DNA of 58,649 bases. Source: Candidatus Omnitrophota bacterium. GTDB taxonomy: Bacteria > Omnitrophota > Gorgyraeia > Zapsychrales > Zapsychraceae. The notes below the pieces were generated by a model, which saw only the letters and a list, made by a program, of their open reading frames with translations, searched no databases and was not told the DNA's origin. Below are positions 1-58,649 of this stretch, piece after piece. A program made the position numbers and the translations under genes. The stretch covers positions 1-58,649 of the forward strand of contig JADFZM010000003.1 of the NCBI GenBank assembly GCA_015232535.1, in the 5' to 3' direction. How positions within the stretch are numbered: the stretch's first letter is position 1; each line of letters opens with the position of its first letter.

Positions 1-3000
1 TACAAAGTTTTTATATTTTTCAAGAAGATTCTTCCTGCGGACAAGGATAATCCTTCGGCTAAACTTGAAAGTGCGGTGAAAGTGACAGAGGGGGCAGAGA
101 CTTTATTCGAAGGGAGGCCGGCGGGAGTAGAGATGGTCGATACTTTGATATACGGTCATCCAGCTCTTTGGCCGGTGTATAAAGAAGTTGCTAATAATCC
201 TATTAAAGGGAAGAAAGTCCTAGAGGGAATAGCTGAAGCGCTTCAATCTGAAAATTATTATGAGGTAATAGCGGAGATAAAGGAAGAGCTTGCTACTGAT
301 GGGGTAAGCGACAGAGTTGATGAAGAATATTTCTCGATACCGGAAAGGGAGAGCGGAACTCTAGGGATTCAGGATAAGGCGATGTTAAGCAGGTCTCATT
401 TATCAGATGAGGAGTTAGCTGTTCTAAGGGGTTCGGATGAAGAAGCCGGATTTATCTACAAGCGTGAATATGAAGAATCTCGTGTCAGGGGTCAGATAAC
501 AAATATCCAGGAAGCCCTGCGAATAACTAACTATGATGGGCGTAAGAGGCCGGAAGATCAAAATATCAAGGAAGCATTGATTGCTCTTGATGTTGATAAA
601 GTGATTGCGTGGATTGAAAGTCCTGAAGGAAAATTCAGCGGGCAAGAGGTCCACATATTGGATGGGGTTGGCCCGGACGCTAAGGCGATAGGGAGGCTTG
701 ACCGGAAAGTTGCCGAATATTATGGATTTCCCCACGAGACTGCGAACATTGTTATGATCGCGCCGGATGGAAATGTAATTGTACAGTTGCGTAATACCGA
801 TAGATTTGATGACCATCTGGGAATGTATGGCGGGCATTTGAAGGTGGGGTCAACTCATTATGAAGGAGCGCTGGCAGAAACATTGGAAGAGACGGGATTG
901 GCCTATCTGGATTTTAATCCATCCTTTGTGGGATATGAACATTACGCTATTGATGGAGATAATAATAAGGAACGCCGGTCATGGTTTGTTAAAATTTTGA
1001 CTCAAAGGGAGTATGCCAATATTGAAATAGAAGTTAACAGGCTAAAGACTTTGAAAGACCGATATACCCGCCTGGAGGTAAAAGAAATACTCTCCGAAGC
1101 AAGGGAGAGGGTCAAAGACGGTAAGAATGAAGTTGTCGGTAAGTATCTTATTCCTTTTGCAAAATTATTAAACGCTAAGAAGAAGACTTATGTCCTGGGG
1201 AAGATAAACGGAGCTATGCCGTATGAAAATAAGCCGGTCCGGTACTTGTATGTTAGGGACGCTTATCAGGGAAGAGTAAAGCGAATTATGGCATATTTTA
1301 CTCCGGATTCTTTGGACAGATTGTTTTCCGATGAAAATAAAGGCGACCTTTTACCTAAACTTGAACAGGCTGTCAATCAAGCACGACGAGTCATTGCCGG
1401 GATCGCCAAAGATTTAATTGATCGTGACGAAAAAGACGGAATAACCGTAGAGGCTGTTCAGAGAGCTTTACATAAAAAAAACACTATCGTTTTAAATTCA
1501 GGAATAGGGCGGGATCAGCAATCTTTAGCGGAGGAAGTTGTTCAAAAAGCGAATGAGGCAAGGGGTAGAAGCAAAAAGGGAATTGTAATAACTCTTATCG
1601 GAGGCGGTGGTACGGGAAAGAGTACAACGGCACAAGCTATTGCCAAGAAATTAAACGTTACAAATGTTTATGTTGGGCTCATTTATAGAGCTTTGGCTTT
1701 AGAAATACTAAAGGAAGGTTTCACTGCTGATGCTGATACTGTTGCAAAAGCTTTGGAAGAAACACCTCCTGGTTCCTCAAAAACAAGGGCGGCGATTATC
1801 CTAGAAAAGCTTGAGCTTATCTCGGATAATAATTTTAATCCGAGCATAACTTATAACGGTCAAGATATTAATAGTGAAATTGAAGAACGACGAGTCGACC
1901 TTGAAAAGGCAATGAGCGGAACAGCCTGGAGCCAAAATCTACACAAGCAGATAGCCCATTTCTGGCTTAAAACTGTTGAAGCAGAGGTCGCTCAGGGTAA
2001 AGATGTAGTCGTAGATCTGCGCCCTAAACAAGCCGAGTTGATAAAAGACAAGAAATTAACGGTTTATTTAACCGCAGATATTCTTATCCGGGCCGGCCGC
2101 CGGGCTAATGATAATATTGAATCTAAAGGCCTAAATAATACCGAGCAATCTTATGCATCTAGCGTTGTAGTTCCGGAGCAGGCCATATCGGTAGAAGACG
2201 TTTTGGCCCCGTACTATAACAACAAAGCAAGGGTTTATTTTGATGCCGAGCAAGCCAAGGTTGACAAAATGTGGGAAGGGGCTATAGGGTCCCCGCTTGG
2301 GGCATCGGTCGGTGTCCTTAGCCAGGAATTCTATGACTGGGTTCGTATTTCCTCGGGGGAAGGAGACAGGACCACCGGCGAATTATTCGCGAACTTCATT
2401 AAGGACCGCATTCCTGCCGAGTGGATAGAATCTCTTAAGACAGACAGGGATGCTTTCATTGAATTATTTCCCGGGCACATTGAACTAACGGAAGAAGAGA
2501 TTGTTAAAGATTATCCTAAGGCTAGCCTTCATCAAAGAAAGACGGAAATGGCTATCGAACAAATGTATGAGACCAAGAAAGGCCTTCATGCCCGATATAT
2601 TGTGGCCAATATGCCCGGGCGGTCATCCGTTGTTCAGTTGGTCGGGTTCCTTAAATTTATGGGGGTACCACATGATAAGATATTAATTCATCCCGAGCCA
2701 ACAAAAGAAGCAAAGATAGCATGGTATGAAAAGCTACTCGGGAAAGTAATAGACGAGGTAGATTCGATCGTTTTTATCCCGGTATCAAATGCCGATATTA
2801 GTCCTGCCCTGAATCCCAGCCCAGATAAGCAGTCTACGATCTACCCTTCTGAAAGCCAGCTTAAGATGAGGGTTAGTAATCAAACGGGCTTTGGAGGGAT
2901 TATCAAAGGAAAAGATGGCAAGAAAATTCTCGTGTTGAACATCCGTTCGATCTTTGGCGAAGCAACTAGTGATTTTGTAGATTGGCTTACACCGAAAGCC

Positions 3001-6000
3001 AAAAGTAGCGGACGGCTAAGAAAGATTGTTTTTTACGGTACGGCGGGGGCATTTAATTCTCCGGAGCCCGGGTCTATAAAGAAAAGAGTTGGTGATATTA
3101 TCGTTCCGGATCAAACTTCTATGGAGTTCTTTGACAGTGTTTTCGGCGGTCTTTTGTCATATGAAATAAGTTTTGATAATGCCGCGCTTCTAGCCAGACC
3201 ATTGACCCTGCATAAGATTGATATAGGTGATAAAGCTTTAAATGACTTTAATCAAGCTGAAAAAGAAATAATTGTTCAAGCTGTTAATGGGGTTTCGCTT
3301 ATTAAGCCGGAAAATGGCAAGCCGGTTTTAAATGCTACGACTGCTAATGTTGGAAACGAAACGGCCCGAATGGTTAGGCAGTTGCGCGGAAGCGGAGCTG
3401 AAGCGGCTGACATGGAGTTGTATTATTTGGTGAAAGGCATAGGTGAGATTAATGCTTCTCGCTCTTCAGGGGAAAAGATTCAGTTTTCAACAATGCTAAG
3501 AGTTGCAGATATTCCCGGAACTAAACAAGGAACGGATGCCAATATAAAAAGCCGAGATGATAGAGTTGTTAAGAAGATAAGAGAAATTATTAGTGACCAG
3601 GTTTTTACCTCCATAAGGGAGTTTTTTGATCAAGCCATGGTTCCCGATGGCATTCCAGTCTTGCCTTCGGGGAGTGACAGGGCTATGTTGGCTGATAAAA
3701 GAGATTTAAAAGAATACCAGGAAGTGGTTGCAAAGTATTCTAACAAGAAGAATAGCAAGGGGGAATTAGTCCCTAAAGATGTTAGCGGGGCTAGAATAAA
3801 GTTTGATGAAAAGACTTTAAAATCTTTGCCCTTTAGGGGAAACACGGTTGTTGTATGGTTTGATGAAGAAACAAATCAAAAATTTGTCGAGATAAAAAAG
3901 AGAATACAGGAAAAATTATCGCAACTGACTCGCCAGGACCATAAGCGCTATGGCGAAATGATGAATAAAGTGGCTTTTGTTGATGATAGATCATTTCATC
4001 TTACGCTTTTTGACTTAATCAATCCTGATGATTTTAGTAGCTTATCAGCTGAACAAAGAGAAATAAAAATTAAGGCAGTAAACGAGCAAATACGACAAGT
4101 CTTTGCTTCCTTGAGAGCAGAGGGTAGGCTGGCTCCTATTCAAGTAGGGGTTGACGCTTTAGGTTCATTTATGCCTTTTACGTATTCTTTACTAATTGCT
4201 TTGAGTACTCCCAGAAAACAAGAAGACCTAGATCGTATTAATTATATTAGAGAAGAAATAAGTAAAGCAACAGGGATTGTTTTGGCTAAGCCTTTTGTTG
4301 CCCATAGTACTTTGGGGTATATCGTTAATCCTATGAATGTTGAAGAGTATGCGGCGTACAAGAAAATTGTTGATGAGGTTATGGATGATCCGCAATTTAA
4401 GTTTGAGATTGAATTGGGTAACTTGGAATTACGTTTATTTGAGACCATGGATGATTATGGCGAAAATTCCGTTGATAAAGTTGATTTAGCGATGTATTCG
4501 GTCTTAGATATTAATGATCCCAAGAGTTCTGAAATTGCTTTGGTTGGAGGAAAGGCTGCCAGCTTAAAAGAGCTTGGCTCTATACCTGGGATCAGAGTTC
4601 CCGCCGGATTCAATGTTACAACGAAAGTTTACGCGGATTATCTGGAGCAGATCGGCGCTGCTCCCTATATAGCTAAACTTGAAGATTTCTCTGAACAGTG
4701 GAAAGTTCTTCCAGAGAATGAACCAGGCCGTGAAGCTCTGACAATTGAAATGCGCAGGTTGTCGGAAGAAATTCAAGCTATTATTTTAAGCGGAGAGATC
4801 CCCGAGGAGGTACTAGGTTTAATCTTGGAGTCATATAGAAGTTTGGATAAAGAAGGGCTGCCGGCCCTGGTTGCCGTTCGCTCTTCTGCAACAGCAGAAG
4901 ATATGCCAGGGGCATCATTTGCTGGGCAGTACAAGACTTATTTGAATCAGCAGGGTGATGCAAAGGTCATTGAGGCGATTAAGAAAGTTTGGGCTTCAAC
5001 CTACAATATGAACGCTATTGAATATCGTAACAAGCAGAATATGCAGCATAGTAAGAATAAAATGTGTGCGCTGATACTTGAAATGGTAAATCCCCAATCG
5101 GCGGGGACAGCGTTTTCTGTTGATACAGAAACAGGGGCGCCTTTTATAAGCCTTAATAATACATATGGTCTGGGCGAGGCAGAGGTTTCTGGCATCGTCA
5201 CGTCAGACACTTGGGTTATTGACCCGCAAACTAACACTATTCTCAAACGACGACTAGGCAAGAAAAACGTAAAGATTGTTTATGATCCCGAGAAAAGAGA
5301 GAATGTCATTTTGGAAAACTCTGAACGAGAAAGTAACAGATTCGCGATCAGTACTATTACGGCAAAAGAAATAGCAAGGCAGGTTAGAATTATCCATGAA
5401 CATTATACGAAGAAATCAGTAGATATTAAGTATATTGACGCAGAGTATGTCGTAACAAGCACGGGCGACGTTGTTTTTACACAAACTAGGCCGGAAACGG
5501 TCTGGGGAAAAGGCCGGGCAAAATTGTTAGCTGTAGATAAAGAGAAGGCAAGAAGTTATCCAGTTATTCTGGAGGGAGGGGTTACAGGCTCTTCGGGAGT
5601 GGCGACAGGAGTTATTAGAATTGTTCGTTCAGTAGAAGATGCCGCTAAATTTATTGAGCCAGGGGACATCATGGTCGCGCCCAATACAACCAATGTTTGG
5701 GAACACTCAATGGGGCTGGCCGGGGGCATCATTACAGAAGTTGGAGGAAATGGTAATCACACTGCTGTTGTGTCAAGAGAACAGGGAAAGCCGGCTATAG
5801 TCGGGAACTCTAATGCTATTGAAATACTAAAAGAATATGATAATCAGGAAGTCACTATAGATGCTACCTTAAAGAGAGTTTATTTAGGGGCGGTTCCTTC
5901 GGAATATTTCTATAGCCCTGATAAAATTCAGCCGCTTTATGGTGGCCTATACAGTGAAACCTTGGAGGATGGTTGGGAGGCCGCGAGTAAAACCGGGCAA

Positions 6001-8094
6001 ACTCATCTGGACTCAGAGGGAGGACGGTGGATTGGAAAGCCGAATGTTCCGGTCGGAGAATTTATGGGTATAATTTTTCAAAGAAATCATCGTTGGATTG
6101 CGGAACGATTAAAATCTCCTATTCGGGATAGATTTGAAAACAATATCTATCAAGTAAATTTCGAAGACATCTATCAATGGATGGAAAGGATTCAAGGCAT
6201 GAGCTTTGAGGAATTAGAGGCTATCCATATCGAAAAGATACAAACGATAAAAGAGTATTTAGAAAAAAGCAACGATCTTGAGTTGACAGAGGCGTCTATC
6301 CGCGAGTGGATAGATGTTTTTATTCGTATGAACGCCTATATGGGATTTGCATACAATTTTTATAAAATCACTGAAGGGATGCTGGAGGATGCTTTAAAGG
6401 AAAAAGCTATCCCTGAGCCATATTTTTCTCAGGTTCGACAAGGCATGAGTGTTATTTTTGGCGCGACAGAAGCTACCGAGAGATTAAAAGATTATAGAAA
6501 ACTTTTAGCCCTTTTAAGTAAAGACGGCGGTCAGCTTTTGAAAACATTGCAAGAGGCTTTGGCGGCCGGTAATTTTCTTGAGCTTGAAAAGTTATATCCC
6601 CAGTTCTATGAGTTACTTTTTTATCATGCGACTAATTACAAGGCTTCGAAAAGCATAGATGCTACTTTTTTTAGCGAACCTCCGCTTGCAGTAGTTGTTA
6701 AAGAGCTTATTCGTGATATCGAAGACAAAAGAATAATTAGAATCAATGAGCCGACTGCTGAGAATTTTTATCCTGATGACTACGAGTTTCAAAGGATTGC
6801 CCGGCTGGCTTTAATATCCGAGAAAGTTAGGCAGGATTCGCATCATATTAAGGCAAGAGGACAGTGGAAATTCGCAGAAGTTCTAAAACCGTTGGCGGTA
6901 TTCTTGATAGAAAAAGGAGAGATCGAGGCATTTGGAGATATTTTTGATCATTCTCCGGAGTGGATAATGGAAAAGGTCGCTGATTATGAAAAGGCGCGGC
7001 CGGCTGGAGATAAAGATAATCCCGTTTTTCATATTAAACCGTATGAGATACAGGATTTGATAGCAACTAATGATGATATGATCGGGAATGAGACTATTGA
7101 TGAAGCCATGCTTACGAGTATGGGTCGTTGGAAATTTGACTCAGTTCAGTGGATGGAGGCCTCAAGACAATTGGTACTTGTGAATGCTGCGCGCATAGAA
7201 GAGGTCGTTAAACCGGAATTCTTGGAAAAAGGACAGCATTCTTCTAGAGATATTGTTTTAACACCAAGAGAGTTGAATGATAAGGAGCATACCAAGATAG
7301 ATGGCCTTGCAGGTGGCCTAGGGATCGATAGTGCCAAGGTCATTGTTATTAAACTGGATCAGGTAGCGGCTTTTCATAGAATTTATGGGTTATATTCGGA
7401 TGGTGTTTTATTTATTAGAGAAGATATTCTCTCTGAGGGCAATCAGGATCAGATTAAAGAAGCCTTGGATCATTTGCGCTTAAAGCCAACAGGATTGAGT
7501 TATGAGGAATTAAAGAAGATCCAGTATCATGGGGACTTGAGAAGCCTTATAACGAAACTTTCTAATCGGACAATAAAATGGAAATTATTGTTTTCGTTGT
7601 ACGGCGAAAAGGAAGCAGAACTCTTGATGAGTGGGGTAACAGAGCAATCGATCAAAGACGCTATCATAAGGGCGATTTCGGAACAGTTGGGTGCCGCGAA
7701 ATTAGAATACCAAGAACAGGTAGCTCGTTTACGCAGCGATGCGCTATTTTACGATGGCGTAACAAGAGAGATGGTCAGGAATAAAGCGGGATTTATTCAA
7801 GCTGTCGATATTTTTAACAAAATGAATGATAGAGCAGTATTAGGTAAAGGCAAGATTGATAAGGCATCTTTATCCGATGTCGGAGGCGTTGATTTTAACA
7901 ATATTCGCGTAAACCGCATGGGTAATAACATCGATATTAAATTTAAACCCGCTCAAATGCAGGATATCCTTAATAATGGCATCGATGGTTTTGTCCCGGT
8001 CATTATTGATATAATTCCTCTTATGAATATTTTGCCAATCTTGGGCTTGGAGCCGGCGGATAAAGAGGAATTTAATGTGTCTAGTTTAAATTAG
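1..8094 (+). CDS. Giant multidomain protein, 5'-partial (at least 2697 codons in window). It is a fusion of Nudix-like, cytidylate-kinase-like, nucleoside phosphorylase/nucleosidase-like, 2H phosphoesterase and PEP-utilising (ATP-grasp + phosphohistidine swivel) domains, a long helical region, and a conserved 70-aa C-terminal module.
   Basis: The track ORF 76..8094 begins at a GTG. The same frame is stop-free back to nt 1 (YKVFIFFKKILPADKDNPSAKLESAV-KVTEG...) and no convincing RBS precedes nt 76, so the gene most likely starts upstream of the window. Domain motifs are listed as separate features. Confidence 0.9.
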   Translation, partial: YKVFIFFKKILPADKDNPSAKLESAVKVTEGAETLFEGRPAGVEMVDTLIYGHPALWPVYKEVANNPIKGKKVLEGIAEALQSENYYEVIAEIKEELATDGVSDRVDEEYFSIPERESGTLGIQDKAMLSRSHLSDEELAVLRGSDEEAGFIYKREYEESRVRGQITNIQEALRITNYDGRKRPEDQNIKEALIALDVDKVIAWIESPEGKFSGQEVHILDGVGPDAKAIGRLDRKVAEYYGFPHETANIVMIAPDGNVIVQLRNTDRFDDHLGMYGGHLKVGSTHYEGALAETLEETGLAYLDFNPSFVGYEHYAIDGDNNKERRSWFVKILTQREYANIEIEVNRLKTLKDRYTRLEVKEILSEARERVKDGKNEVVGKYLIPFAKLLNAKKKTYVLGKINGAMPYENKPVRYLYVRDAYQGRVKRIMAYFTPDSLDRLFSDENKGDLLPKLEQAVNQARRVIAGIAKDLIDRDEKDGITVEAVQRALHKKNTIVLNSGIGRDQQSLAEEVVQKANEARGRSKKGIVITLIGGGGTGKSTTAQAIAKKLNVTNVYVGLIYRALALEILKEGFTADADTVAKALEETPPGSSKTRAAIILEKLELISDNNFNPSITYNGQDINSEIEERRVDLEKAMSGTAWSQNLHKQIAHFWLKTVEAEVAQGKDVVVDLRPKQAELIKDKKLTVYLTADILIRAGRRANDNIESKGLNNTEQSYASSVVVPEQAISVEDVLAPYYNNKARVYFDAEQAKVDKMWEGAIGSPLGASVGVLSQEFYDWVRISSGEGDRTTGELFANFIKDRIPAEWIESLKTDRDAFIELFPGHIELTEEEIVKDYPKASLHQRKTEMAIEQMYETKKGLHARYIVANMPGRSSVVQLVGFLKFMGVPHDKILIHPEPTKEAKIAWYEKLLGKVIDEVDSIVFIPVSNADISPALNPSPDKQSTIYPSESQLKMRVSNQTGFGGIIKGKDGKKILVLNIRSIFGEATSDFVDWLTPKAKSSGRLRKIVFYGTAGAFNSPEPGSIKKRVGDIIVPDQTSMEFFDSVFGGLLSYEISFDNAALLARPLTLHKIDIGDKALNDFNQAEKEIIVQAVNGVSLIKPENGKPVLNATTANVGNETARMVRQLRGSGAEAADMELYYLVKGIGEINASRSSGEKIQFSTMLRVADIPGTKQGTDANIKSRDDRVVKKIREIISDQVFTSIREFFDQAMVPDGIPVLPSGSDRAMLADKRDLKEYQEVVAKYSNKKNSKGELVPKDVSGARIKFDEKTLKSLPFRGNTVVVWFDEETNQKFVEIKKRIQEKLSQLTRQDHKRYGEMMNKVAFVDDRSFHLTLFDLINPDDFSSLSAEQREIKIKAVNEQIRQVFASLRAEGRLAPIQVGVDALGSFMPFTYSLLIALSTPRKQEDLDRINYIREEISKATGIVLAKPFVAHSTLGYIVNPMNVEEYAAYKKIVDEVMDDPQFKFEIELGNLELRLFETMDDYGENSVDKVDLAMYSVLDINDPKSSEIALVGGKAASLKELGSIPGIRVPAGFNVTTKVYADYLEQIGAAPYIAKLEDFSEQWKVLPENEPGREALTIEMRRLSEEIQAIILSGEIPEEVLGLILESYRSLDKEGLPALVAVRSSATAEDMPGASFAGQYKTYLNQQGDAKVIEAIKKVWASTYNMNAIEYRNKQNMQHSKNKMCALILEMVNPQSAGTAFSVDTETGAPFISLNNTYGLGEAEVSGIVTSDTWVIDPQTNTILKRRLGKKNVKIVYDPEKRENVILENSERESNRFAISTITAKEIARQVRIIHEHYTKKSVDIKYIDAEYVVTSTGDVVFTQTRPETVWGKGRAKLLAVDKEKARSYPVILEGGVTGSSGVATGVIRIVRSVEDAAKFIEPGDIMVAPNTTNVWEHSMGLAGGIITEVGGNGNHTAVVSREQGKPAIVGNSNAIEILKEYDNQEVTIDATLKRVYLGAVPSEYFYSPDKIQPLYGGLYSETLEDGWEAASKTGQTHLDSEGGRWIGKPNVPVGEFMGIIFQRNHRWIAERLKSPIRDRFENNIYQVNFEDIYQWMERIQGMSFEELEAIHIEKIQTIKEYLEKSNDLELTEASIREWIDVFIRMNAYMGFAYNFYKITEGMLEDALKEKAIPEPYFSQVRQGMSVIFGATEATERLKDYRKLLALLSKDGGQLLKTLQEALAAGNFLELEKLYPQFYELLFYHATNYKASKSIDATFFSEPPLAVVVKELIRDIEDKRIIRINEPTAENFYPDDYEFQRIARLALISEKVRQDSHHIKARGQWKFAEVLKPLAVFLIEKGEIEAFGDIFDHSPEWIMEKVADYEKARPAGDKDNPVFHIKPYEIQDLIATNDDMIGNETIDEAMLTSMGRWKFDSVQWMEASRQLVLVNAARIEEVVKPEFLEKGQHSSRDIVLTPRELNDKEHTKIDGLAGGLGIDSAKVIVIKLDQVAAFHRIYGLYSDGVLFIREDILSEGNQDQIKEALDHLRLKPTGLSYEELKKIQYHGDLRSLITKLSNRTIKWKLLFSLYGEKEAELLMSGVTEQSIKDAIIRAISEQLGAAKLEYQEQVARLRSDALFYDGVTREMVRNKAGFIQAVDIFNKMNDRAVLGKGKIDKASLSDVGGVDFNNIRVNRMGNNIDIKFKPAQMQDILNNGIDGFVPVIIDIIPLMNILPILGLEPADKEEFNVSSLN
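700..1010 (+). other. Nudix-hydrolase-like domain within ORF1 (degenerate Nudix box)
   Basis: The segment IVMIAPDGNVIVQLRNTDRFDDHLGMYGGHLKVGSTHYEGALAETLEETGL (box at 829..900) resembles GX5EX7REUXEEXGU. The spacing is off by one and the box Arg is replaced by Ala (AETLEETGL). Confidence 0.55.
1576..2110 (+). other. Cytidylate kinase (CMK)-like P-loop domain within ORF1
   Basis: The Walker A motif is IVITLIGGGGTGKSTTAQAIAKKL (1600..1623). It is followed by VYVGLIYRALAL (compare CMK xDTGAMYRA) and a distal KLTVYLTADILIRAGRRAND (compare CMK FLTAsxexRAxRR). Confidence 0.7.
2920..3520 (+). other. Nucleoside phosphorylase / nucleosidase (PNP_UDP_1-like) domain within ORF1
   Basis: Three motifs fit this superfamily: KILVLNIRSIFGEA, IVFYGTAGAFN...VGDIIVPDQ (glycine-rich loop + GDxxV), and GAEAADMELYYL (compare the xDMEsaa motif). 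Confidence 0.5.
3840..4480 (+). other. 2H phosphoesterase (LigT / cyclic phosphodiesterase-like) domain within ORF1
   Basis: Two H-x-T/S-x motifs occur at the expected ~100-aa spacing: SFHLTLFDL (His codon 3997..3999) and VAHSTLGYI (His codon 4303..4305). Confidence 0.65.
4490..5510 (+). other. PPDK_N-type ATP-grasp (pyruvate phosphate dikinase / PEP synthase N-terminal) domain within ORF1
   Basis: The domain carries VGGKAASLKELGSIPGIRVPAGFNVTT and the near-canonical VAVRSSATAEDMPGASFAGQYKTYLN, and ends at FTQTRPETVW. Confidence 0.9.
5570..5890 (+). other. PEP-utilising enzyme mobile (phosphohistidine swivel) domain within ORF1
   Basis: Motifs are GSSGVATGVIRIV, GDIMVAPNTTNVWEHSM and GGIITEVGGNGNHTAVVSREQGKPAIVG. 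The putative phospho-His codon is at 5758..5760. Confidence 0.85.
7882..8091 (+). other. Conserved 70-aa C-terminal module (copy 1), shared with ORF2
   Basis: The sequence is GGVDFNNIRVNRMGNNIDIKFKPAQMQDILNNGIDGFVPVIIDIIPLMNILPILGLEPADKEEFNVSSLN-stop. It aligns with the last 70 aa of ORF2. Confidence 0.8.
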
Positions 8095-8182: not shown

Positions 8183-8296
8183 ATGACATTTCACTTCCAA
8201 AATTTTAAATCCAACAAACTAAACAGGGGCTTAGGCTTTCTAGCCGCCTTCTTTCTAGTACTTGAATCCATTCTTTCTCCCGTTGCTTCTTATGCG
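8183..8296 (+). other. Sec-type signal peptide (or signal anchor) of ORF2
   Basis: In MTFHFQNFKSNKLNRGLGFLAAFFLVLESILSPVASYA|QS there is a basic n-region, a hydrophobic core and an A-x-A-like SYA site. ORF3 carries the same SYAQ junction. Confidence 0.7.
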
Positions 8297-11200
8297 CAAA
8301 GTGTTTATGATCTTCCGGCTGTAGGCGCTCAGGTTAATTTAAGCCAAAGCTTCGCCCCGGCGGTATTAAAAGGGATCAGGATCGACCCCAAAGAGCCGCT
8401 AAACTTTGATTTCATCGTCGATGCCGGCGATTCCGGATTAAAAGACGCGGAGTTAAAGAAAGAATCCGAAAAACTTATTAAATATTTCCTCGCCTCATTG
8501 ACCGTCCCTAAAGACGAGCTTTGGGTCAATTTATCCCCTTATGAAAAAGACCGCATAATCCCCGATTCGCTTTCCCAAACCGATATGGGACGCGACCTTC
8601 TCGCCCAGGATTATATCTTAAAGCAATTAACCGCGGCTTTGGTTTATCCGGAGGATGAACTGGGGGCAAAATTTTGGGAAGAGGTTTATTCTAAAGTTAA
8701 AACAAAATACGGCGCTAAAGACCTGCCGGTCAATACCTTGTCTAAGGTATGGATAATCCCGGATAAAGCGACTATATACGAGAAGAACAACACTGCTTAT
8801 ATCGTTGATTCCCATCTAAAGGTAATGCTTGAGGAGGATTATGTAGCCATGGATAAACAGAAAGCCATGGCGGAATCCCGCGATTCCTCGCGGGACAGTG
8901 ATTTACAAAGGACGAACGGGGAAATAAACAATATTCTGCGTTCGATCATAATCCCGGCAATTGAAAAAGAAGTTAATACCGGAAAGAATTTTGCTAATTT
9001 AAGGCAAGTTGTTAATTCTCTTATTTTGGCAACCTGGTATAAAACCAATTTAAAAGAAAGTTTACTTGGAAAAGTTTACGTCGATAAGAATAAAATATTT
9101 GGCATTGTTACCGCAGATGAGAATTTTAAAGAGAAAATATACAACCGTTATTTAGAAGCTTTAGAGGCCGGAGCAAGGAATTATATCAGAGAAGATTACG
9201 ATCCCAAGACTCGGCAGCTTGTTCCGCGCAAATATTTTGTTGGGGGATTAAACTTAGAAGGAATCGGATATCGCTCCTCTTCTGCGGACAATGAAAAAAT
9301 TAATCGTTTAAGCCCTGGGCCTGTATCAGAAATCAATCTGACTTTAAGAACGGATAGAAATATGCTTTCGGGGATCGAGAAGAAAGCCCCCGCATTAAGC
9401 CGGTTTAATGACCTTAAGATTGTTTCTTGGCAAAATGGAGCAATGATTGCCGAAGGTTATATTGATGATCCCAACGAAAAGATTTTGGTAAAATTACTGA
9501 CTGACGATTCTTTGAAAAATAAAAGAGAGTTTGCGGTTTATGAAGAATTACTTGCCCATGATTCTTCTTTAAGTTTTCTTGAATTATTTCCTTCATATGA
9601 AGGTCAGGCAGTTCTTGAATCTTCTGATTTAAATCTTCCTTTGTTTGCGGGTAAAATCGGCCTTAGTGAAGGAACAAAATATTTTGTTGTCAGAAAAGCA
9701 CAAGGGGTAAATATCAGAGAAAGAATCGTTGAATTAAAAGAAAAACTTCAAGGCGCTCATTCATTGGAAGCAGATGAACATGTTATCGGAGATTTATATT
9801 CGATTATAGATGCAATTAAAAGGCTTCATGCTAGAGGAATAATCCTAAAAAATCTAAGGGCTGATAATATATTAATTGATCCCCGAAAGAATTCGATTAC
9901 GATAGACGTAGTTTCATCTCTTTCCATCGCAGATGCCCATAATTCCGAAATAGATATTTATGGCGGGCAAAGAAAAACCTACCAACAGGGAAATAAATTG
10001 CTTTATTATGGAAAAGCCGATATAGAAAGTTTCGATGAAATAGCGTTATTGTACTCGGAAGGTTTATTAAGCTCAAAGTCTTCTTTAATATCGAGCTTGT
10101 CAAGCCTAAGGTTATCAGCGGCCGAGTTCTTTTATAAAACCAGCGACCCTTATGAATTATCCGAGGTAGTTCCATCAATAGGGGCTGATGAGATATTGCT
10201 TTTGTTGGCTAATAAAAGAAATAATATCGGTGTATGGAATCAATCCCGAAAGATAAGAGAATTAGGGGCAGAAAAAGGTGGAGAAGCGGTATTAGAGCTA
10301 AGAAAATTGTTAAATCCTTTAAAAACCCAGGAACCTCGCTTACGTTCGGCGGCCCTTGATGGTTTGATGGCGACAAATTCTCCATTGTCCGTTAGGGCAA
10401 TTGCCACCGCATTGAAGGATCCCGACCGTTTTGTTAAAAGATCGGCAGCCAGTTATTTGGGGAATTTTCCCAGAAGTAAAGTAGCGGTAAAGGCCTTGAT
10501 CAAGGCATTAGCGGACCCAGACAGCGCGGTTTTTGAGAATGCTCTTGATTCCATAAGTAAGATTGGAGACGAAGATACTATTGTTGAATTGAATATTCTA
10601 CGTTCGGGAGAGCCTAAGATAATGACGTTTTCAAGATTTGATGATCATGGAGGGATGATCAGATATACTAAAAAACCAGTTTACACAGGCTACAACGCCC
10701 AAAAATTGACTTATCAAGGAGAGGAGACCATTGAAAATCCCAGGGTCTCTCAATATTCTAAAACAATCGCAGATCTGCAGAGGAAATTAAAGGAGGAAAG
10801 ATTAAAAAGGAAAATCAATTTAGAAGAAGTTAAAGATAAAAGAATCCCAGCATTCTTCAAATGGCTTGAAGAAAAAGGCCTCGCAGATTATTTTGTTATA
10901 GTCGGCGGAGGCGTCCGCGATCTTTATACGGGAGAGATGCTTAACGATCTAGATATTGGAATAAAAGTAGAATTAACGGATGAAGAAAGGCTGCAGTTTA
11001 TAACTCCCATTAATCAGGCTACTGAAAGGGTTTGGCAATATTCAATGGATAAGCTAAAGTTATTGGCTGATGCCTTAGGTGAGGATGTAAATGTGTTCTT
11101 GCCGCCCCTTTTTGGGAAGAAATCAGTCTTCTGGAGCGATGGCAAGAACCCCACTATAGAAATACAATATACCGGCCCTATAAGACAGGTTGATTCAGAA

Positions 11201-13705
11201 GACGGCACTCCTATTTATATTAAAAGATCCTTATTTGATGAGAATGATCGTTCAGTCTATCTTACTAGGACCAATGCGGCGCTATTATCGACCGGGATTG
11301 ACTCTAGAGGTAACATTTATGGGAGGGTTAGCGCTTTTGATGATTTTGATAACGGTATCGCTCAATTAGCCGGAGATGGTGATAACTTTGATATAGGGGC
11401 CATAATGCGTTTTTTACGGCTCAAATATCAGTTCGGCTTGAAAATTACTCAGGATGATTATTCCTTGGTTCAAGAACAAATAAAGAGGTATTTATCGGAC
11501 GATTCGGAAATCCCCAGCGTTATAATTTATTTTGTTTTGAGCCGGCAGATAGAAAGGCTTCTTGCAACAGCCAAAGACAAAGATGCCGCGCATCTGGAAT
11601 TGGAAAGGCTAGGCATTTATAAATTATTGGACTTGGGAAAACACCGCCAAATAAAGCCGGAAGAAATTGAAGCTTGGGGATTGAATATTGCCCCGGCCTT
11701 AGAAGCGGCAATTATGGAAATTTCTGATATAAGAAAAAGTAGGCAGCGAGAAATATTAAAGTCCAGCTTATTGAATATATTAAATGTGCAAAGTAAGCCG
11801 ATAACGAAGAGGAGGCTTTTTGAGATTCTAAGGATTAATCCAGACTTTGCGAAAGTAAATTTCAGGGAAGTTCTTCAAACTATTGCTTATTATTCTATTT
11901 TAGCCAATCACATCTATTTACTAAGAAAACCATCTCTCTCTGACCTTGCGGAAGAAAGAGCTAATGCTGTGCCGGGATCGGGCGTGACAAATTCAAGATT
12001 ACGTTTTAGCATGGATGATGTCACAAATGTTATTATAAATCCTGAAGTATTAGAATATGATTTTGGTATAAGCTTCGATGAGTTGACTGATGAGGAGATT
12101 TTATTATTGGCTAAAACACCTTATCCCGCTATCGGGCAGACGCTAGGTTTGACTATAGCCGAAAATACCAAGTTAAACCTAAAGCAGTTATTGGAATTAT
12201 TGGAGATCAGGGATAATAGCCTAACAGAAATTGTCTTAGAGAATATTGTATCCAGGTTTAAAGGAGCTACTAATTTAAAAGATACGCTGCAGAGTAGGAT
12301 GCTGCTTATAAGAAATGAGCTAAGAGCTGCCCGTCTTTTGCGTTATGAATGGCTTAAGACTAATACGGATATAGTAGATAAATATAGCCTATCTTTTGTT
12401 GCTAATAATGAATATGCAGGGCTTAGAAATAAGGCCAAGAAATTTAAGGATGAAATTATTCTATATGCCAAAGCCATAGCCAAGCTGGACGGAAAAGACA
12501 CAGTTGTTCACGGTTCAGCGATGAATGTGGTTTTTAATCCTCTAGGTAATTTCCTGCCTCATTCATCAGCGCGATTAAATAGAAATATTGGCATGATAAA
12601 AATAGAGCAATTGCTGGATAAGGAATCAGAAATGGCACCTGTGTGGTCAAGATTAGACTCGGATGAATTATATTTATCCGAGAGAGAGGTCACTGGCGGG
12701 GATTCAGGAATAAATCAGGTCAGAGTCAAGAAATATATAAGGTATAGGGAAAGGAAGACCGGAAAGCTATACTATTCGACCCAATATGAAAAGGCCCAGA
12801 TGTTCTCGGTGATTTCCAGTTATTTGTTCTTTAGGTTGATCGGGCTACCAATCCGCCCGACATTTGTTTTAAGAAAAGAAGACGGAGAGCCGATTCTTTT
12901 AAGAGAGATAATTCACAACAGTTCGCCTTTGGACGAATACAAGATAGTTTTCGGCGAAGATGCTATACAATTTGCTTCCGTATGGAGGAGGCTGTTAAAG
13001 GGGGCGCTATTGGCGGACAATGTTCTGGGCCATCGCGGCCGGGGCCAAGACACTATTTCAATTATCACCAACGCGGATGGCTCGAAAAAACCCTTTTTTG
13101 ATGAAATGAGAAGTGCATTCGGGATTCCCGATGTTATTGATGATAAAATCCCTATTAGCGAGCAGGTAAATTATAATTTCTCCGATAACGTTGTTTCGCT
13201 GCCGGACCGGCAGGTAACGGCAGGAGTATCCGGGCTTTTCCCCGATGAATTATCAGCAAATCCTTATCAATCTAAGGCCCGGCATGCTGACCTGGCCTGG
13301 ATGGCAGGATATTTAAAGCAGGTAACCCCTGAACAATTGCGGGGAATTTTGGATTACGCGAATAAAGCTGTCCCGAATAATGGATTGGATGTTGAGGCGA
13401 TTTTTATGGAATGGCAAAAGGCTTTAGATAAAGTCCGGGAGATATATCCGGATAAAGCGCAATTATCCAACCGAAATTCTCAAGAGACCCCCGGCGGTAT
13501 CGACCTGAATCCGGATAATATAACGATGGATATTAAATCCGATGGGTTAAAGCCGCGCTTTGAGTTCTCCCCCGATATCCTTGAAGCTTATCCAATAAGG
13601 GGGTTTGAGCCGGTCATTATCAATATCTCTCCCATAAACAGCCTGCCTTTATACTTAGGGATCATTAAGGCAGAAGGCGAGATGAGTATAAGCCGCCTTA
13701 ATTGA
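8183..13705 (+). CDS. Giant secreted or membrane-anchored multidomain protein (1840 aa). It has a signal peptide, a conserved N-module, a pseudokinase-like domain, HEAT repeats, a CCA/polyA-polymerase-type nucleotidyltransferase, ~680 aa of unassigned sequence, and the conserved 70-aa C-terminal module.
   Basis: This is one long uninterrupted ORF whose ATG follows an 88-nt AT-rich spacer after ORF1. Domain motifs are listed separately. Confidence 0.92.
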   Translation: MTFHFQNFKSNKLNRGLGFLAAFFLVLESILSPVASYAQSVYDLPAVGAQVNLSQSFAPAVLKGIRIDPKEPLNFDFIVDAGDSGLKDAELKKESEKLIKYFLASLTVPKDELWVNLSPYEKDRIIPDSLSQTDMGRDLLAQDYILKQLTAALVYPEDELGAKFWEEVYSKVKTKYGAKDLPVNTLSKVWIIPDKATIYEKNNTAYIVDSHLKVMLEEDYVAMDKQKAMAESRDSSRDSDLQRTNGEINNILRSIIIPAIEKEVNTGKNFANLRQVVNSLILATWYKTNLKESLLGKVYVDKNKIFGIVTADENFKEKIYNRYLEALEAGARNYIREDYDPKTRQLVPRKYFVGGLNLEGIGYRSSSADNEKINRLSPGPVSEINLTLRTDRNMLSGIEKKAPALSRFNDLKIVSWQNGAMIAEGYIDDPNEKILVKLLTDDSLKNKREFAVYEELLAHDSSLSFLELFPSYEGQAVLESSDLNLPLFAGKIGLSEGTKYFVVRKAQGVNIRERIVELKEKLQGAHSLEADEHVIGDLYSIIDAIKRLHARGIILKNLRADNILIDPRKNSITIDVVSSLSIADAHNSEIDIYGGQRKTYQQGNKLLYYGKADIESFDEIALLYSEGLLSSKSSLISSLSSLRLSAAEFFYKTSDPYELSEVVPSIGADEILLLLANKRNNIGVWNQSRKIRELGAEKGGEAVLELRKLLNPLKTQEPRLRSAALDGLMATNSPLSVRAIATALKDPDRFVKRSAASYLGNFPRSKVAVKALIKALADPDSAVFENALDSISKIGDEDTIVELNILRSGEPKIMTFSRFDDHGGMIRYTKKPVYTGYNAQKLTYQGEETIENPRVSQYSKTIADLQRKLKEERLKRKINLEEVKDKRIPAFFKWLEEKGLADYFVIVGGGVRDLYTGEMLNDLDIGIKVELTDEERLQFITPINQATERVWQYSMDKLKLLADALGEDVNVFLPPLFGKKSVFWSDGKNPTIEIQYTGPIRQVDSEDGTPIYIKRSLFDENDRSVYLTRTNAALLSTGIDSRGNIYGRVSAFDDFDNGIAQLAGDGDNFDIGAIMRFLRLKYQFGLKITQDDYSLVQEQIKRYLSDDSEIPSVIIYFVLSRQIERLLATAKDKDAAHLELERLGIYKLLDLGKHRQIKPEEIEAWGLNIAPALEAAIMEISDIRKSRQREILKSSLLNILNVQSKPITKRRLFEILRINPDFAKVNFREVLQTIAYYSILANHIYLLRKPSLSDLAEERANAVPGSGVTNSRLRFSMDDVTNVIINPEVLEYDFGISFDELTDEEILLLAKTPYPAIGQTLGLTIAENTKLNLKQLLELLEIRDNSLTEIVLENIVSRFKGATNLKDTLQSRMLLIRNELRAARLLRYEWLKTNTDIVDKYSLSFVANNEYAGLRNKAKKFKDEIILYAKAIAKLDGKDTVVHGSAMNVVFNPLGNFLPHSSARLNRNIGMIKIEQLLDKESEMAPVWSRLDSDELYLSEREVTGGDSGINQVRVKKYIRYRERKTGKLYYSTQYEKAQMFSVISSYLFFRLIGLPIRPTFVLRKEDGEPILLREIIHNSSPLDEYKIVFGEDAIQFASVWRRLLKGALLADNVLGHRGRGQDTISIITNADGSKKPFFDEMRSAFGIPDVIDDKIPISEQVNYNFSDNVVSLPDRQVTAGVSGLFPDELSANPYQSKARHADLAWMAGYLKQVTPEQLRGILDYANKAVPNNGLDVEAIFMEWQKALDKVREIYPDKAQLSNRNSQETPGGIDLNPDNITMDIKSDGLKPRFEFSPDILEAYPIRGFEPVIINISPINSLPLYLGIIKAEGEMSISRLN
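8297..9247 (+). other. Conserved ~320-aa N-terminal module (copy 1), shared with ORF3
   Basis: Long runs are identical with ORF3: KLIKYFLASLTVP, WVNLSPYEKDR, MGRDLLAQDYILKQLT, LVYPEDELG, SHLKVMLEED, IEKEVN.GKNFA.LRQ, NLKESLLG, PRKYF.GG. Confidence 0.85.
9420..10060 (+). other. Protein-kinase-like domain of ORF2, probably a pseudokinase
   Basis: ILVKLL matches a VAIK-like Lys and FAVYEEL matches the alpha-C Glu. The catalytic-loop region LHARGIILKNLRADNILID (9826..9880) aligns to HxxGixHRDLKpxNILxD, with HRD replaced by LKN (catalytic Asp to Asn). TIDVV sits at the DFG position. Confidence 0.55.
10250..10595 (+). other. HEAT / PBS-lyase-type repeats in ORF2
   Basis: The segment LRSAALDGLMATNSPLSVRAIATALKDPDRFVKRSAASYLGNFPRSKVAVKALIKALADPDSAVFENALDSISKIGDEDTI shows the repeated (A/L)L.DPD..VR..A pattern. 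Confidence 0.7.
10840..11460 (+). other. tRNA nucleotidyltransferase / poly(A) polymerase family head domain (PolyA_pol-like) in ORF2
   Basis: YFVIVGGGVRDLYTGEMLNDLDIGIKV (10889..10966) matches the GGxVRDxLLGxxxxDxD signature. The downstream IMRFLRLKYQFGLKI matches the RxxRFxxxxgF helix motif. Confidence 0.8.
13493..13702 (+). other. Conserved 70-aa C-terminal module (copy 2), shared with ORF1
   Basis: The sequence is GGIDLNPDNITMDIKSDGLKPRFEFSPDILEAYPIRGFEPVIINISPINSLPLYLGIIKAEGEMSISRLN-stop. Confidence 0.8.
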
Positions 13706-41463: not shown

Positions 41464-41473
41464 GAAAAGAGCG

Positions 41474-45646: not shown

Positions 45647-45654
45647 AGCATCCT

Positions 45655-55845: not shown

Positions 55846-58649
55846 ATGATCAGGTTTATAGAAAACAAAAAACAAACAAAATATCACCGCTTAATTTGCG
55901 CTGTGGTGCTTATCGCCTTTGTCTTTACTGGCATAATCCCGCCTTCTTACGCGCAAATAGCCGCACAGACTGTATTGAACCTGCCTGTGCCGGGGGCGAT
56001 GGTGCCGGTGAGCTCCGGCTACATACCTACTCTAATAAAGGGGATCACTATACATCCCGAAAACCAACTTCTCTTTGATTTTATTGTGGATACCGGAGAC
56101 AGCCAGTTGCAGGGGAAAGAGCTGACCGATGAAGCGGTCAAACTTATCAAATATTTTCTTGCTTCTTTGACCGTTCCGGAAGATGAAATGTGGGTCAACC
56201 TGTCCCCTTATGAGAAAGACCGTGTTGTTCCCGATGGATTCGGAGTAACCGAAATGGGCCGCGACCTTTTGGCGCAGGATTACATTTTAAAACAGCTTAC
56301 CTCGACGCTTGTTTACCCTGAAGATGAATTAGGCAAAACGTTCTGGGCGCGGGTATACGAAAAGACTCAAAAAGAATTTAATACAACTGATATCCCGATG
56401 AATACCTTTAACAAGATATGGATATTACCGGAAAAAGCGGCTGTTTACGAGCACGGCAACAGCGTTTTTGTCGTTGAAAGCCATTTGAAGGTCATGCTCG
56501 AGGAAGACTTTGTGGCTTTAAATAAGAATTTAGGTATAAAAAGTTTCGGCCTTGAGGGCGTTGAAAAAGAATCCGCTGAAAAATACAGTGCGGTATCAAG
56601 CAAAATTATCAAAGAAATATTAATTCCTGAGATTGAGAAAGAAGTTAATGAAGGTAAAAACTTTGCGCAGTTGAGGCAAATTTATAATTCGGTCATCTTA
56701 GCCAGCTGGTATAAAGAGAATTTAAAGGAAAGCTTGTTGGGACAGGTTTATGTCGGGAAGAATAAGACATTCGGCGTGGATGTTGAGGATAAAGAAATCA
56801 AACAAAGGATTTATAATCAGTATTTAGAGGCTTTTAAGAAAGGCGTTTACAACTATATTAAGGAAGATTATGACTCTCAAACAAAGACTATTATCCCCAG
56901 GAAATATTTTTCCGGCGGTTCAAAGATGGGTAATGTAAAAGTTGCCAAAAGAAGCGGTAATGACGTGGCAATGTTGGCCTCGCGCAAAAATGGCGATGTT
57001 TTAGATTTTAGAACAAATTTAGCCGATGCGGGAGAGGGCGCTTTACCTGGTGCAATAGCAGAAGCCGATCGCTTTGCAGAAGAGGCCAGCTCTGGGCTTT
57101 CCTTAATAGCCGTTGAGCCGGGGACCGATGAGGCTATTTTCGGCCAAACCACAATAGAATTAAATGGACGGCAAGTTTATACCAGCGAATTAAAGAGTAT
57201 ACTTGAAGCGATGGGCGATGATTTGCTGACCCAAAATGTTGCGCAAGCCGCCGGCCCGCAAGGCCAGGCATCAGAGGATGTCAGAATTCTGAGGTTCAAT
57301 GTGCTAGAACGCTTGGTTGATGCAAGAATGACACAGGCAGTTACTAGGCCCTTGAGCGGTGAAAATCCTCTCAATTATGTTGAATTCAGCAAAGAGCTAT
57401 TAGCCTCATTAGTTGAATACCTAAAACCAAGTGAAACCGGAGCACGCCTTGTCATAAATGGTGCTGAGATGTATTTAGAATGGAAACAAGCATATAAAGA
57501 AGCTGACAGTTCTTTTATTATTAATAAAGCCAGATTTTGGGTTGATTTTCGTAGAAAAGTAGCAGATGAAGAGGAACGCCTAATGAGGGATTTTCATCGG
57601 GGGTTTCTGGATTATAGGCTGGTTGAGTTATCCCGTTTCCTGGAAAATAAAGTTTTAAATGTAGAGGTAACTTCCTTCACAATGCGAAGTGGAAGTATGG
57701 GATTAGAATGGGAGGAAGATGAGGGACACTTGAAATTTTCTATTAGGCAAGGAAAACTAGAAATAATATTCAATGATAAGGACGTTGTTTATACTAGTCT
57801 CATCTCATACAAGAGCCCAGTTCAAGTCCTTAGGGAAATCTTGGATGTCAGCAATTACCAAAACAAAAGAAATTTAGAAATAAAGTTAACTGACCAAACC
57901 GTGAAAATAATCACAGATAAAATAAGGGAATTAGAATCCCGTGAGGCCGCGATAAAAGATATGGCCGATAATGTTAAAAAAGGCGGGGACATCGTTGGAT
58001 TGCACTCTTGGGCGGACGAAGATACCCTGGCCGGTTTCACCGCCGCAAAGAAAGCCGGTCTTAATCCTGAGTTAAAAGGCCCACAGCAGACAAATCGGGT
58101 GCGTTCGCAAAATCCCCAAGCAATATTATTACAGACCGTAAAAAAGGGCGGATTATCCGAAGCTGTCAGAGCCGGGGCGGATGTTTTAATCTCCTCTGAA
58201 ATGCTCTTGAAAGGAGAAATAGCTCAAGCCCGCGAAGACGCAAAAGAAAAGAATATCCTGATAATTGCCGGTATTAACACACAGCCCAAAGAAGGGGAGA
58301 TTTCTGTTCAAAGTCAAATCGCCATGGCCTTCAAAAATGGAGCCGACGGCGTAAAATTCAAACCCGCCGGTAGAGGGCTGGAATACAAGGTCCTTGATTG
58401 GATTGAAATTGTCCGTGAAAGATATCCAACAATGATTATTATGGTAGCCGGAGGCGTGACCAATCAAAACCGTAATCAATTCGGGCCCGATGTCATCGCC
58501 GGAATTGGAGCGGATTCGCTTCGTGAAATTAATTCGATAGCTAATTGGGCAGTTAAAAAAACAACCACCGACACCTCCATGCTGGCCACTTACAAACTGC
58601 CCAAAGGGACGATGGAATTCGGCGGAGAAGTTGTAGGGATCCTTGCTTT
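55846..58649 (+). CDS. Third giant-family ORF, 3'-partial (at least 934 codons, no stop in window): signal peptide + conserved N-module + unassigned region + aldolase-like TIM-barrel segment
   Basis: This ORF is absent from the supplied track. I translated the frame starting at ATG 55846 (RBS AAGGAG 8 nt upstream) codon by codon to nt 58649 and found no stop. The N-terminus is MIRFIENKKQTKYHRLICAVVLIAFVFTGIIPPSYA|QI, and it then parallels ORF2. Confidence 0.9.
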   Translation, partial: MIRFIENKKQTKYHRLICAVVLIAFVFTGIIPPSYAQIAAQTVLNLPVPGAMVPVSSGYIPTLIKGITIHPENQLLFDFIVDTGDSQLQGKELTDEAVKLIKYFLASLTVPEDEMWVNLSPYEKDRVVPDGFGVTEMGRDLLAQDYILKQLTSTLVYPEDELGKTFWARVYEKTQKEFNTTDIPMNTFNKIWILPEKAAVYEHGNSVFVVESHLKVMLEEDFVALNKNLGIKSFGLEGVEKESAEKYSAVSSKIIKEILIPEIEKEVNEGKNFAQLRQIYNSVILASWYKENLKESLLGQVYVGKNKTFGVDVEDKEIKQRIYNQYLEAFKKGVYNYIKEDYDSQTKTIIPRKYFSGGSKMGNVKVAKRSGNDVAMLASRKNGDVLDFRTNLADAGEGALPGAIAEADRFAEEASSGLSLIAVEPGTDEAIFGQTTIELNGRQVYTSELKSILEAMGDDLLTQNVAQAAGPQGQASEDVRILRFNVLERLVDARMTQAVTRPLSGENPLNYVEFSKELLASLVEYLKPSETGARLVINGAEMYLEWKQAYKEADSSFIINKARFWVDFRRKVADEEERLMRDFHRGFLDYRLVELSRFLENKVLNVEVTSFTMRSGSMGLEWEEDEGHLKFSIRQGKLEIIFNDKDVVYTSLISYKSPVQVLREILDVSNYQNKRNLEIKLTDQTVKIITDKIRELESREAAIKDMADNVKKGGDIVGLHSWADEDTLAGFTAAKKAGLNPELKGPQQTNRVRSQNPQAILLQTVKKGGLSEAVRAGADVLISSEMLLKGEIAQAREDAKEKNILIIAGINTQPKEGEISVQSQIAMAFKNGADGVKFKPAGRGLEYKVLDWIEIVRERYPTMIIMVAGGVTNQNRNQFGPDVIAGIGADSLREINSIANWAVKKTTTDTSMLATYKLPKGTMEFGGEVVGILA
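55954..56919 (+). other. Conserved ~320-aa N-terminal module (copy 2), shared with ORF2
   Basis: The module reads LIKGITIHPENQLLFDFIVDTGD...KLIKYFLASLTVPEDEMWVNLSPYEKDRVVPD...MGRDLLAQDYILKQLTSTLVYPEDELG...SHLKVMLEEDFVAL...IEKEVNEGKNFAQLRQ...NLKESLLGQVYV...PRKYFSGG. Confidence 0.85.
57960..58560 (+). other. Possible KDPG-aldolase-like / phosphate-binding TIM-barrel segment in ORF3
   Basis: ILIIAGINTQ...AMAFKNGADGVKFKPAG...RERYPTMIIMVAGGVTNQN resembles the GA..vKfFPa ... ptGGv..(d)N pattern of Eda-type aldolases. This is a weak by-eye call. Confidence 0.3.

Follow-up and report, generated by a model that had tools for sequence, protein, structure and literature searches.

Conserved N-terminal and C-terminal ends frame variable cargo in a very large family of putatively exported Omnitrophota proteins

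We analyzed a 58,649-nucleotide stretch of DNA from a Candidatus Omnitrophota bacterium (GenBank assembly GCA_015232535.1, contig JADFZM010000003.1, forward strand), hereafter the window. Three members of one protein family (ORF1, ORF2, and ORF3) are encoded in it. The neighboring open reading frames ORF1 and ORF2 end in the same C-terminal module, while ORF2 and ORF3 start with a signal peptide followed by the same N-terminal domain (N-domain). The N-domain and the module are two domain families not modelled by Pfam-A or NCBIfam. Judging from the sequences, the N-domain and the module make up the two parts of one scaffold, which defines a very large, apparently exported modular family; its named records belong almost all to Omnitrophota. 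The family features in the window are as follows.

1..8094, + strand: ORF1; no in-frame stop from position 1, 5' end beyond the left window edge, at least 2,697 codons visible
7882..8046, + strand: ORF1 module, conserved core (GGVDFN…GFVPVIIDIIP…ILG)
8047..8091, + strand: ORF1 variable acidic tail (LEPADKEEFNVSSLN), the SSLN ending being a sub-clade trait
8183..13705, + strand: ORF2; complete, 1,840 aa, with signal peptide, N-domain, HEAT-repeat cargo, and C-terminal module
8183..8296, + strand: ORF2 Sec-type signal peptide, read from the sequence, predicted cleavage …SYA|QS
8297..9247, + strand: ORF2 N-domain, residues 39-355, last residues PRKYFVGG
9248..13492, + strand: ORF2 variable cargo, HEAT repeats being the sole Pfam detection
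13493..13660, + strand: ORF2 module, conserved core (GGIDLN…GFEPVIINISP…YLG)
13661..13702, + strand: ORF2 variable tail (IIKAEGEMSISRLN)
55846..58649, + strand: ORF3, third family member, leaving the window at the right edge
55846-55953, + strand: ORF3 signal peptide, read from the translation
55954-56919, + strand: ORF3 N-domain, 53% identity to that of ORF2 (tblastn E = 2e-127)

The frame of ORF1 was first listed as 76..8094, the GTG at 76 being merely the first start possible within the window. Since there is no stop in frame upstream of position 76, ORF1 is open to the left edge and its N-terminus is out of view; the full gene is longer than the visible part and probably starts with the signal peptide and N-domain of the family. 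The first-pass annotation of this DNA, made from the letters of the window, stated that ORF1 and ORF2 share no similarity besides the module. This statement reflects the window cut, because the N-terminus of ORF1 lies outside. No Pfam match was found in the 934 visible residues of ORF3.

The translations of ORF1 and ORF2 were exactly as first given, and so was the shared C-terminal module. A six-frame scan of the window for the pattern GG[IVL]D[FLIVM][NTSD] returned positions 7882 and 13493 only, both 70 codons ahead of a stop. The last 120 residues of the two proteins have 36% identity (BLASTP, E = 6e-6). A local hidden Markov model (HMM), trained on 316 distinct module sequences with both window copies among them, matched ORF1 at 1.6e-12 (residues 2628-2688) and ORF2 at 1.5e-17. 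The DNA identity of the two module coding stretches is only 56%; they diverged long ago and did not arise by recent copying at this locus.

The module has a core of about 55 residues, from GG through LG, with the consensus GGIDL(T/N)PxxxxLxxxxxGxxIKFxxDPAxLxxLxxxxGF-x-PVIINI-x-P-x-x-x-L-x-x-FLG; in the window copies, 14-15 variable polar residues follow. The spacing from GG to GF is well kept: 37 residues in 223 and 36 in 58 of the 316 distinct modules. The tail is not: it is an unconserved, polar stretch with many S, N, E, and Q and essentially no Cys, and between 10 and 104 residues (median 22) follow the GxxPVIIxI motif. Terminal LN was found in 14 and SSLN in 6 of the 316 modules. The length of exactly 70 residues and the terminal S-x-LN, initially taken as conserved elements, therefore hold for both window copies and are traits of one sub-clade only, which includes P0001, P0002, P0274, and P0287, relatives ending similarly to ORF1.

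No transmembrane or hydrophobic helix and no Arg/Lys cluster were found in the tails of the 316 modules. The longest hydrophobic run of the module is PVIINI, only 5-6 residues flanked by prolines. With neither a transmembrane segment nor a basic tail, the module does not read as a sortase-type signal or a tail anchor; the likeness to a tail anchor suggested earlier is unlikely, and the tail itself is polar, variable, and unconserved. The accompanying remark that the layout differs from the PEP-CTERM, GlyGly-CTERM, and IPTL-CTERM tags was correct for the same two lacking elements.

A profile search of 5.8 billion proteins with the two window copies as the query gave 67 matches with E-values down to 2e-17, and the module lay 58-92 residues from the end in all of them. 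With the sequences of these 67 matches as the query, a second search of 1.84 billion representatives gave 5,667 representative proteins at E ≤ 1e-3, including 2,421 at E ≤ 1e-10; the module was at the extreme C-terminus in all of the best 150 matches. Among 347 module-bearing proteins scanned with the local HMM, none contained an internal or tandem copy. The proposal of an unrecognised element that occurs in many different proteins and always at the C-terminus is thus confirmed, and the option that it was a local duplication only fails decisively.

One genome per GTDB species was also scanned for the exact peptide GFVPVIIN. This gave 151 confirmed sites, almost all in metagenome-assembled genomes of Candidatus Omnitrophota; of the remaining sites, one bears the label 'uncultured Alphaproteobacteria' and some have no label beyond 'uncultured Planctomycetales' or 'bacterium', and two named genera among the carriers resolve to Omnitrophota. 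Several sites occur per genome, with five in HK-STAS-OMNI-4 and five in HKST-UBA13. The motif was situated 19-113 residues ahead of the stop of a long ORF in each of the 79 loci retained, the ORFs reaching >3,400 aa. Members are often arranged in same-strand tandem, as are ORF1 and ORF2 of the window and those of loci L003, L010, L022, L031, and L082. No module copy was found on the viral contigs of IMG/VR.

All 67 matches of the first search were short (63-139 aa), and stand-alone small proteins consisting of the module were considered as a candidate. This was rejected. On the two long-read contigs examined, P0001 and P0038 (L080 649-10330 and L081 10001-14320) were pieces of frameshift-broken long genes, and the genes of housekeeping enzymes, among them aconitase and IlvD, were likewise frameshift-split there; most of the other short matches are located on contigs too short for the whole gene. 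Counts of short members in public protein sets are inflated by such fragments.

The second conserved element of the family, the N-domain of about 320 residues, was found at the very N-terminus of 53 of the 60 carriers with a complete 5' end; these carriers are 604-3,066 aa long (median 1,717). BLASTP of ORF2 against the carriers of the loci revealed two common segments in nearly every case, the module and the first ~360 residues, the latter with 45-54% identity (E 1e-90 to 1e-114), and no similarity outside the two ends. Each protein has one N-domain and one module. Since nearly all carriers share the N-domain, the earlier view of the module as a sorting or recognition tag survives in part: an export or assembly signal is plausible from the sequences, and a portable tag on unrelated proteins is not what was found. 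Of 8,000 candidates scored against the N-domain, over 1,400 were related to it at E ≤ 1e-10, nearly all without Pfam annotation. Only part of them carry a source name; these are mostly from Omnitrophota, the few others being archaeal bins or unbinned metagenome records.

The signal peptides preceding the N-domain end in a characteristic way, with 'AQ' at the end (…YAQ) in 182 of 217 N-domain proteins. By the usual -3/-1 rule, signal peptidase I (SPase I) is predicted to cut at A|Q, which would leave glutamine as the mature N-terminus. The (S)YA|Q ending was read at residues 36-40 of ORF2 (window 8288-8302), at residues 34-38 of ORF3, and in the relatives P0200-P0425. It recalls the 'Q-rule' of Bacteroidetes (pyroglutamate after SPase I cleavage), which appears among the references of PMC11285876.

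The smallest arrangement of the family is P0313 (438 aa), which consists of the signal peptide, the N-domain, a 22-residue linker, and the module, and is encoded by an intact gene on 5 contigs. Its gene (L082 2704-4020) is directly followed by that of a 1,110-aa member (L082 4093-7425). In one MAFFT alignment (A3), the segment 'IKFHLDPAMLQQLQNAP' of the module was repeatedly superposed on the last part of the N-domain, 'NYIKEDYDPxTQxxxPRKYF'; a GG pair borders each of the two (…YFSGG / GGIDL…). This superposition is probably an alignment artefact, an internal duplication being the alternative.

Between the two ends, the proteins have little in common. In 107 non-redundant two-ended proteins, the mean identity was 53% for the N-domains and 46% for the modules. 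The middles of 106 of them (P0313 was left out, having a short linker only) formed 88 clusters, 63 of which had no detectable relative in the set. The cargo differs from member to member in length as well, from 0 to about 3,000 residues. Pfam domains identified in the cargo of ORF1 were NUDIX, cytidylate kinase, 2H-phosphoesterase-like, PPDK_N, and PEP-utilizers; other carriers contained protein kinase, Zeta toxin, methyltransferases, HATPase_c, HAD, GNAT, ROK, and ankyrin domains. The recognisable domains are thus mostly of cytoplasmic, nucleotide-using types. In ORF2, two further motifs were noticed by eye, both below Pfam significance: a protein-kinase-like catalytic-loop motif HARGIILKNLRADNILID at residues ~540-570 (window ~9800-9890) and a stretch GGGVRDLYTGEMLNDLDIG resembling nucleotidyltransferases (poly(A) polymerase/CCA-adding enzyme) at residues ~905-925 (window ~10895-10960).

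Neither end was recognised in the databases searched. Scans against Pfam and NCBIfam of the two window copies of the module at E ≤ 10 and of 69 members at E ≤ 1 gave no significant match and no sorting-domain family, so the known sorting-domain model that had been named as a possible outcome did not appear. The N-domain, scanned directly against the same two databases, had no match either. No paper describing the module or its motifs was found in the literature searched, and profile searches of PDB sequences gave no match. An exact look-up of ORF2 in public assemblies found no record. The COMM domain (PF07258), which has a dimerising fold of β-sheet and helix at the C-terminus, appeared in 14 of the 69 members, with a best E of 0.0025; this lead was rejected because the matches were sub-threshold and came from homologous, non-independent sequences, and no COMMD chain was retrieved in the PDB profile search (E ≤ 10).

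Structures were predicted with AlphaFold2 (AF2). Modelled alone, the module had a mean predicted local distance difference test score (pLDDT) of 66.6, a predicted template modelling score (pTM) of 0.23, and almost no secondary structure, with a pLDDT of 55-68 in the GGIDL hairpin; it does not look like an autonomous fold. The model of P0313, built on an alignment of 45 proteins having both ends (A5), had a mean pLDDT of 72.5 and a pTM of 0.69. In its N-domain (residues 31-290), the means of 10-residue blocks were mostly 72-94, with one block at 64, and two long β-hairpins and long helices were modelled; a helix and a low-confidence linker at the N-terminus correspond to the signal-peptide region. 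In the low-confidence models, the module comprises a pair of short strands, one helix, and an extended stretch. In the layout that we propose for the members, it runs from the GGIDL hairpin through a short helix and the GF-x-PVIINI-x-P strand to L-x-x-F-LG, and a short disordered tail ends the protein. In the P0313 context, the pLDDT of the GGIDL hairpin region rose to 77-89, while the GLIPVIIDI strand remained <50. This rise, the sole basis for the proposal, weakly suggests that the hairpin packs against the N-domain. Foldseek with the P0313 model gave no match in PDB or BFVD at E ≤ 0.001; ClyA-type toxins (NheA, MakA) were considered as fold relatives and rejected as noise (E ≥ 0.16, template modelling score (TM) < 0.2).

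The genes surrounding the family are generic. The commonest neighbor families of the 79 loci were those of response regulators (10 loci), ABC ATPases (8), TPR proteins, and integrases, none of them present in more than 10 loci, and no sortase, rhombosortase, or transporter gene linked to the family was seen there. Genes of the type IX secretion system (T9SS; PorU, PorV, SprA) were found neither in the window nor among the conserved neighbors of these loci. The rest of the window holds, on the same strand, genes that are ordinary for a chromosome: those of transporters, lipid synthesis, two-component systems, and PEPCK. Three of its features are listed below.

19339-22785, + strand: fusion of MFS transporter, acyltransferase, and AMP-binding enzyme in a single 1,148-aa ORF
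41450-46908, + strand: efflux system 1, with outer-membrane efflux protein (OEP), HlyD-type membrane fusion protein (MFP), and MacB-type ABC protein, then an MFS_3 'transmembrane secretion effector' protein
48043-53384, + strand: efflux system 2, with OEP, MFP, and AcrB-type RND pump

The presence of two TolC-type tripartite efflux systems indicates an organism with an outer membrane. Both are generic, are located ~28 kb downstream of the end of ORF2, and are not conserved neighbors of the family. The 1,148-aa ORF looks like a lysophospholipid transporter/re-acylation fusion of the LplT-Aas type; after it come lipid genes, which encode an α/β-hydrolase, a hexapeptide transferase, a CDP-alcohol phosphatidyltransferase, CdsA, and one more acyltransferase.

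Taken together, the two conserved ends may be viewed as terminal modules for targeting or assembly, with the variable cargo between them. The explanation that we prefer, with a probability of about 0.5, is that the module is a protein-binding or export-recognition domain which acts together with the N-domain to target or hold cargo outside the cytoplasm. The carrier would be exported by its cleavable Sec signal (…YA|Q). The module would then serve as a small protein-binding domain in need of a partner, not as a membrane anchor, and its near-invariant GGIDL and GFxPVIINIxP would contact one partner common to all members. This partner might be the N-domain, which is just as conserved, or a component that the lineage uses specifically for export or surface assembly. 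The two ends could thereby target, hold, or assemble diverse enzyme cargo outside the cytoplasm, possibly to act on host or prey cells.

Several points weigh against this explanation. Neighbor-ORF clustering over the 79 loci gave no conserved partner gene. The GFxPVIIxI strand is of low confidence in the full-length P0313 model, and the distances among N-domains and among modules are weakly correlated (r = 0.25), which neither proves nor excludes a direct interaction of the two ends. Export is deduced from signal-peptide features only, and ATP-using cargo outside the cytoplasm is hard to rationalise unless it is delivered into another cell. The strict C-terminal position could also be a legacy of cargo inserting into the one linker of an ancestral protein composed of the two ends.

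The strongest rival, which we consider rather doubtful, is mutual binding of the module and the N-domain, the module being structural and not a signal for separate machinery. In cis, such binding would make the protein a closed loop that contains the cargo as a giant insert; in trans, it would be a head-to-tail docking in which the PVIINI strand completes a sheet in the N-domain of the next molecule, and chains or a surface coat of multi-enzyme proteins would result. The pairing of both ends in the 53 of 60 complete carriers, their strict one-to-one number, and the composition of the minimal P0313 are in line with it, as are the poor folding of the module alone, the higher pLDDT of its GGIDL hairpin beside the N-domain (77-89 vs 55-68), and the lack of a linked machinery gene in the 79 loci; the pLDDT <50 of the PVIIDI strand in the cis model and the weak correlation of distances (r = 0.25) speak against it. 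That the module is instead, as in the strict form of the earlier view, a cleaved signal like those of sortase, exosortase, or rhombosortase substrates or like the C-terminal domain (CTD) of T9SS substrates, with a transpeptidase cutting, for example, at GG|IDL and joining the cargo to the envelope, appears improbable. Sec signals, diverse cargo, and many carriers per genome are shared with T9SS and exosortase substrates, and both the strictly C-terminal position and the invariant GG at the module start would suit such cleavage. The module, however, has no transmembrane helix or basic cluster, matches no curated sorting-signal model, and has a core of only ~55 residues, which falls short of the seven-stranded CTD sandwich and was modelled, at low confidence, with 2 short strands and one helix; no sortase-like neighbor was seen in the 79 loci, and the constant pairing with a 320-residue N-domain is foreign to such tags.

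A C-terminal secretion signal of a one-step system of type I or type IV (T1SS/T4SS), with export straight from the cytoplasm, would explain the cytoplasmic-type cargo. Injected effectors typically carry domains such as the kinases, NUDIX, Zeta toxin, and ankyrin and HEAT repeats of this family; the core is followed by acidic residues in the window copies, and TolC-like, HlyD-like, and ABC genes are present in the window. We regard it as very improbable, since the carriers start with a cleavable Sec signal peptide of the classical kind, absent from T1SS substrates, no RTX or HemolysinCabind repeats were detected by Pfam, and the extreme C-terminus is unconserved, with 10-104 residues after the motif; the efflux genes of the window are of the generic MacB/AcrB kind, ~28 kb away, and not conserved neighbors. 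Chance resemblance or a recent duplication limited to this locus might have been supposed from the only two visible module copies of the window, which are in adjacent genes. It is refuted by the thousands of homologues, the 151 sites in other genomes, and the 56% DNA identity of the two copies.

The boldest explanation, which we consider unlikely, is that the N-domain and the module form a previously unknown, self-contained delivery scaffold of Omnitrophota, which after Sec export takes exchangeable, ATP-using enzyme cargo through the outer membrane and delivers it to host or prey cells, either into or onto them. Its two ends might work with each other or with one lineage-specific machine. If this is true, Omnitrophota, as a phylum of uncultured, host-dependent nanobacteria, would have a new signal system for protein export or translocation. 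Omnitrophota are described, in the parts of 10.1101/2023.11.21.568195 and 10.64898/2026.06.07.730766 consulted, as uncultured, ultra-small, and probably host- or prey-dependent; their long or giant multi-enzyme proteins are thought there to mediate cell contact, the targeting logic being not known. A head domain and a tail module around hundreds of unrelated cargo regions provide a sequence handle for cataloguing the exported cargo of a genome. Both ends are also a basis for two new database domain families and a handle for experiments on how the carriers leave the cell or assemble.

In comparison with known systems, the module resembles the LPXTG, PEP-CTERM, GlyGly-CTERM, and IPTL-CTERM signals in being C-terminal, lineage-specific, and present on many secreted proteins per genome; it differs in lacking their layout of signature motif, transmembrane helix, and basic cluster and in giving no HMM match. 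There is also a likeness to the T9SS CTD of Bacteroidota (Por_Secre_tail). Both are lineage-restricted, strictly C-terminal, shorter than 100 residues, without a membrane anchor, and present on many Sec-exported proteins per genome with otherwise unrelated cargo, and Sec signal peptides were indeed read in ORF2, ORF3, and their relatives. The T9SS CTD, however, is a seven-stranded Ig-like β-sandwich of ~70-100 residues, whereas the core of the module has ~55 and was not so predicted in the low-confidence models; the module has no match to the curated models (TIGR04183 / Por_Secre_tail), its host phylum is another one, and T9SS cargo lacks the 320-residue N-domain that accompanies the module.

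Classical autotransporters (type Va secretion system, T5aSS) end in a β-barrel of 250-300 residues, in contrast to the ~55 conserved C-terminal residues here, and no Autotransporter domain was detected by Pfam. T1SS substrates of the RTX type have GGxGxDxUx repeats, a signal within the last ~50 residues, and no signal peptide at the N-terminus; from them, the family differs by its Sec signal peptide, the lack of RTX/HemolysinCabind repeats in the Pfam scans, and the unconserved extreme C-terminus. In MARTX toxins, conserved N- and C-terminal arms enclose a mosaic of variable enzymatic effector domains; the arms consist of glycine-rich repeats, export proceeds through T1SS without a Sec signal, and the effectors are freed by a cysteine protease domain. 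The Omnitrophota family likewise has conserved ends around variable, cytoplasm-type enzyme domains, an analogy at the level of architecture only, since it carries a Sec signal and had no repeat or Peptidase_C80 match in Pfam.

A further comparison is with the giant Omnitrophota proteins ('Archaeovorins'; 10.1101/2023.11.21.568195; 10.64898/2026.06.07.730766). In the passages searched of these two reports, the N-domain and the module are not described, and the family analyzed here is smaller (0.4-3.4 kaa) and without the multiple transmembrane helices of the giant proteins as they are presented there. The phylum is the same, as is the cargo repertoire: HEAT_2, PPDK_N, NUDIX, HATPase_c, and methyltransferases are reported for the giant proteins in the part consulted of West-Roberts et al. 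2023 (10.1101/2023.11.21.568195). As far as those passages go, both groups place metabolic-type domains behind signal peptides and present the same puzzle.

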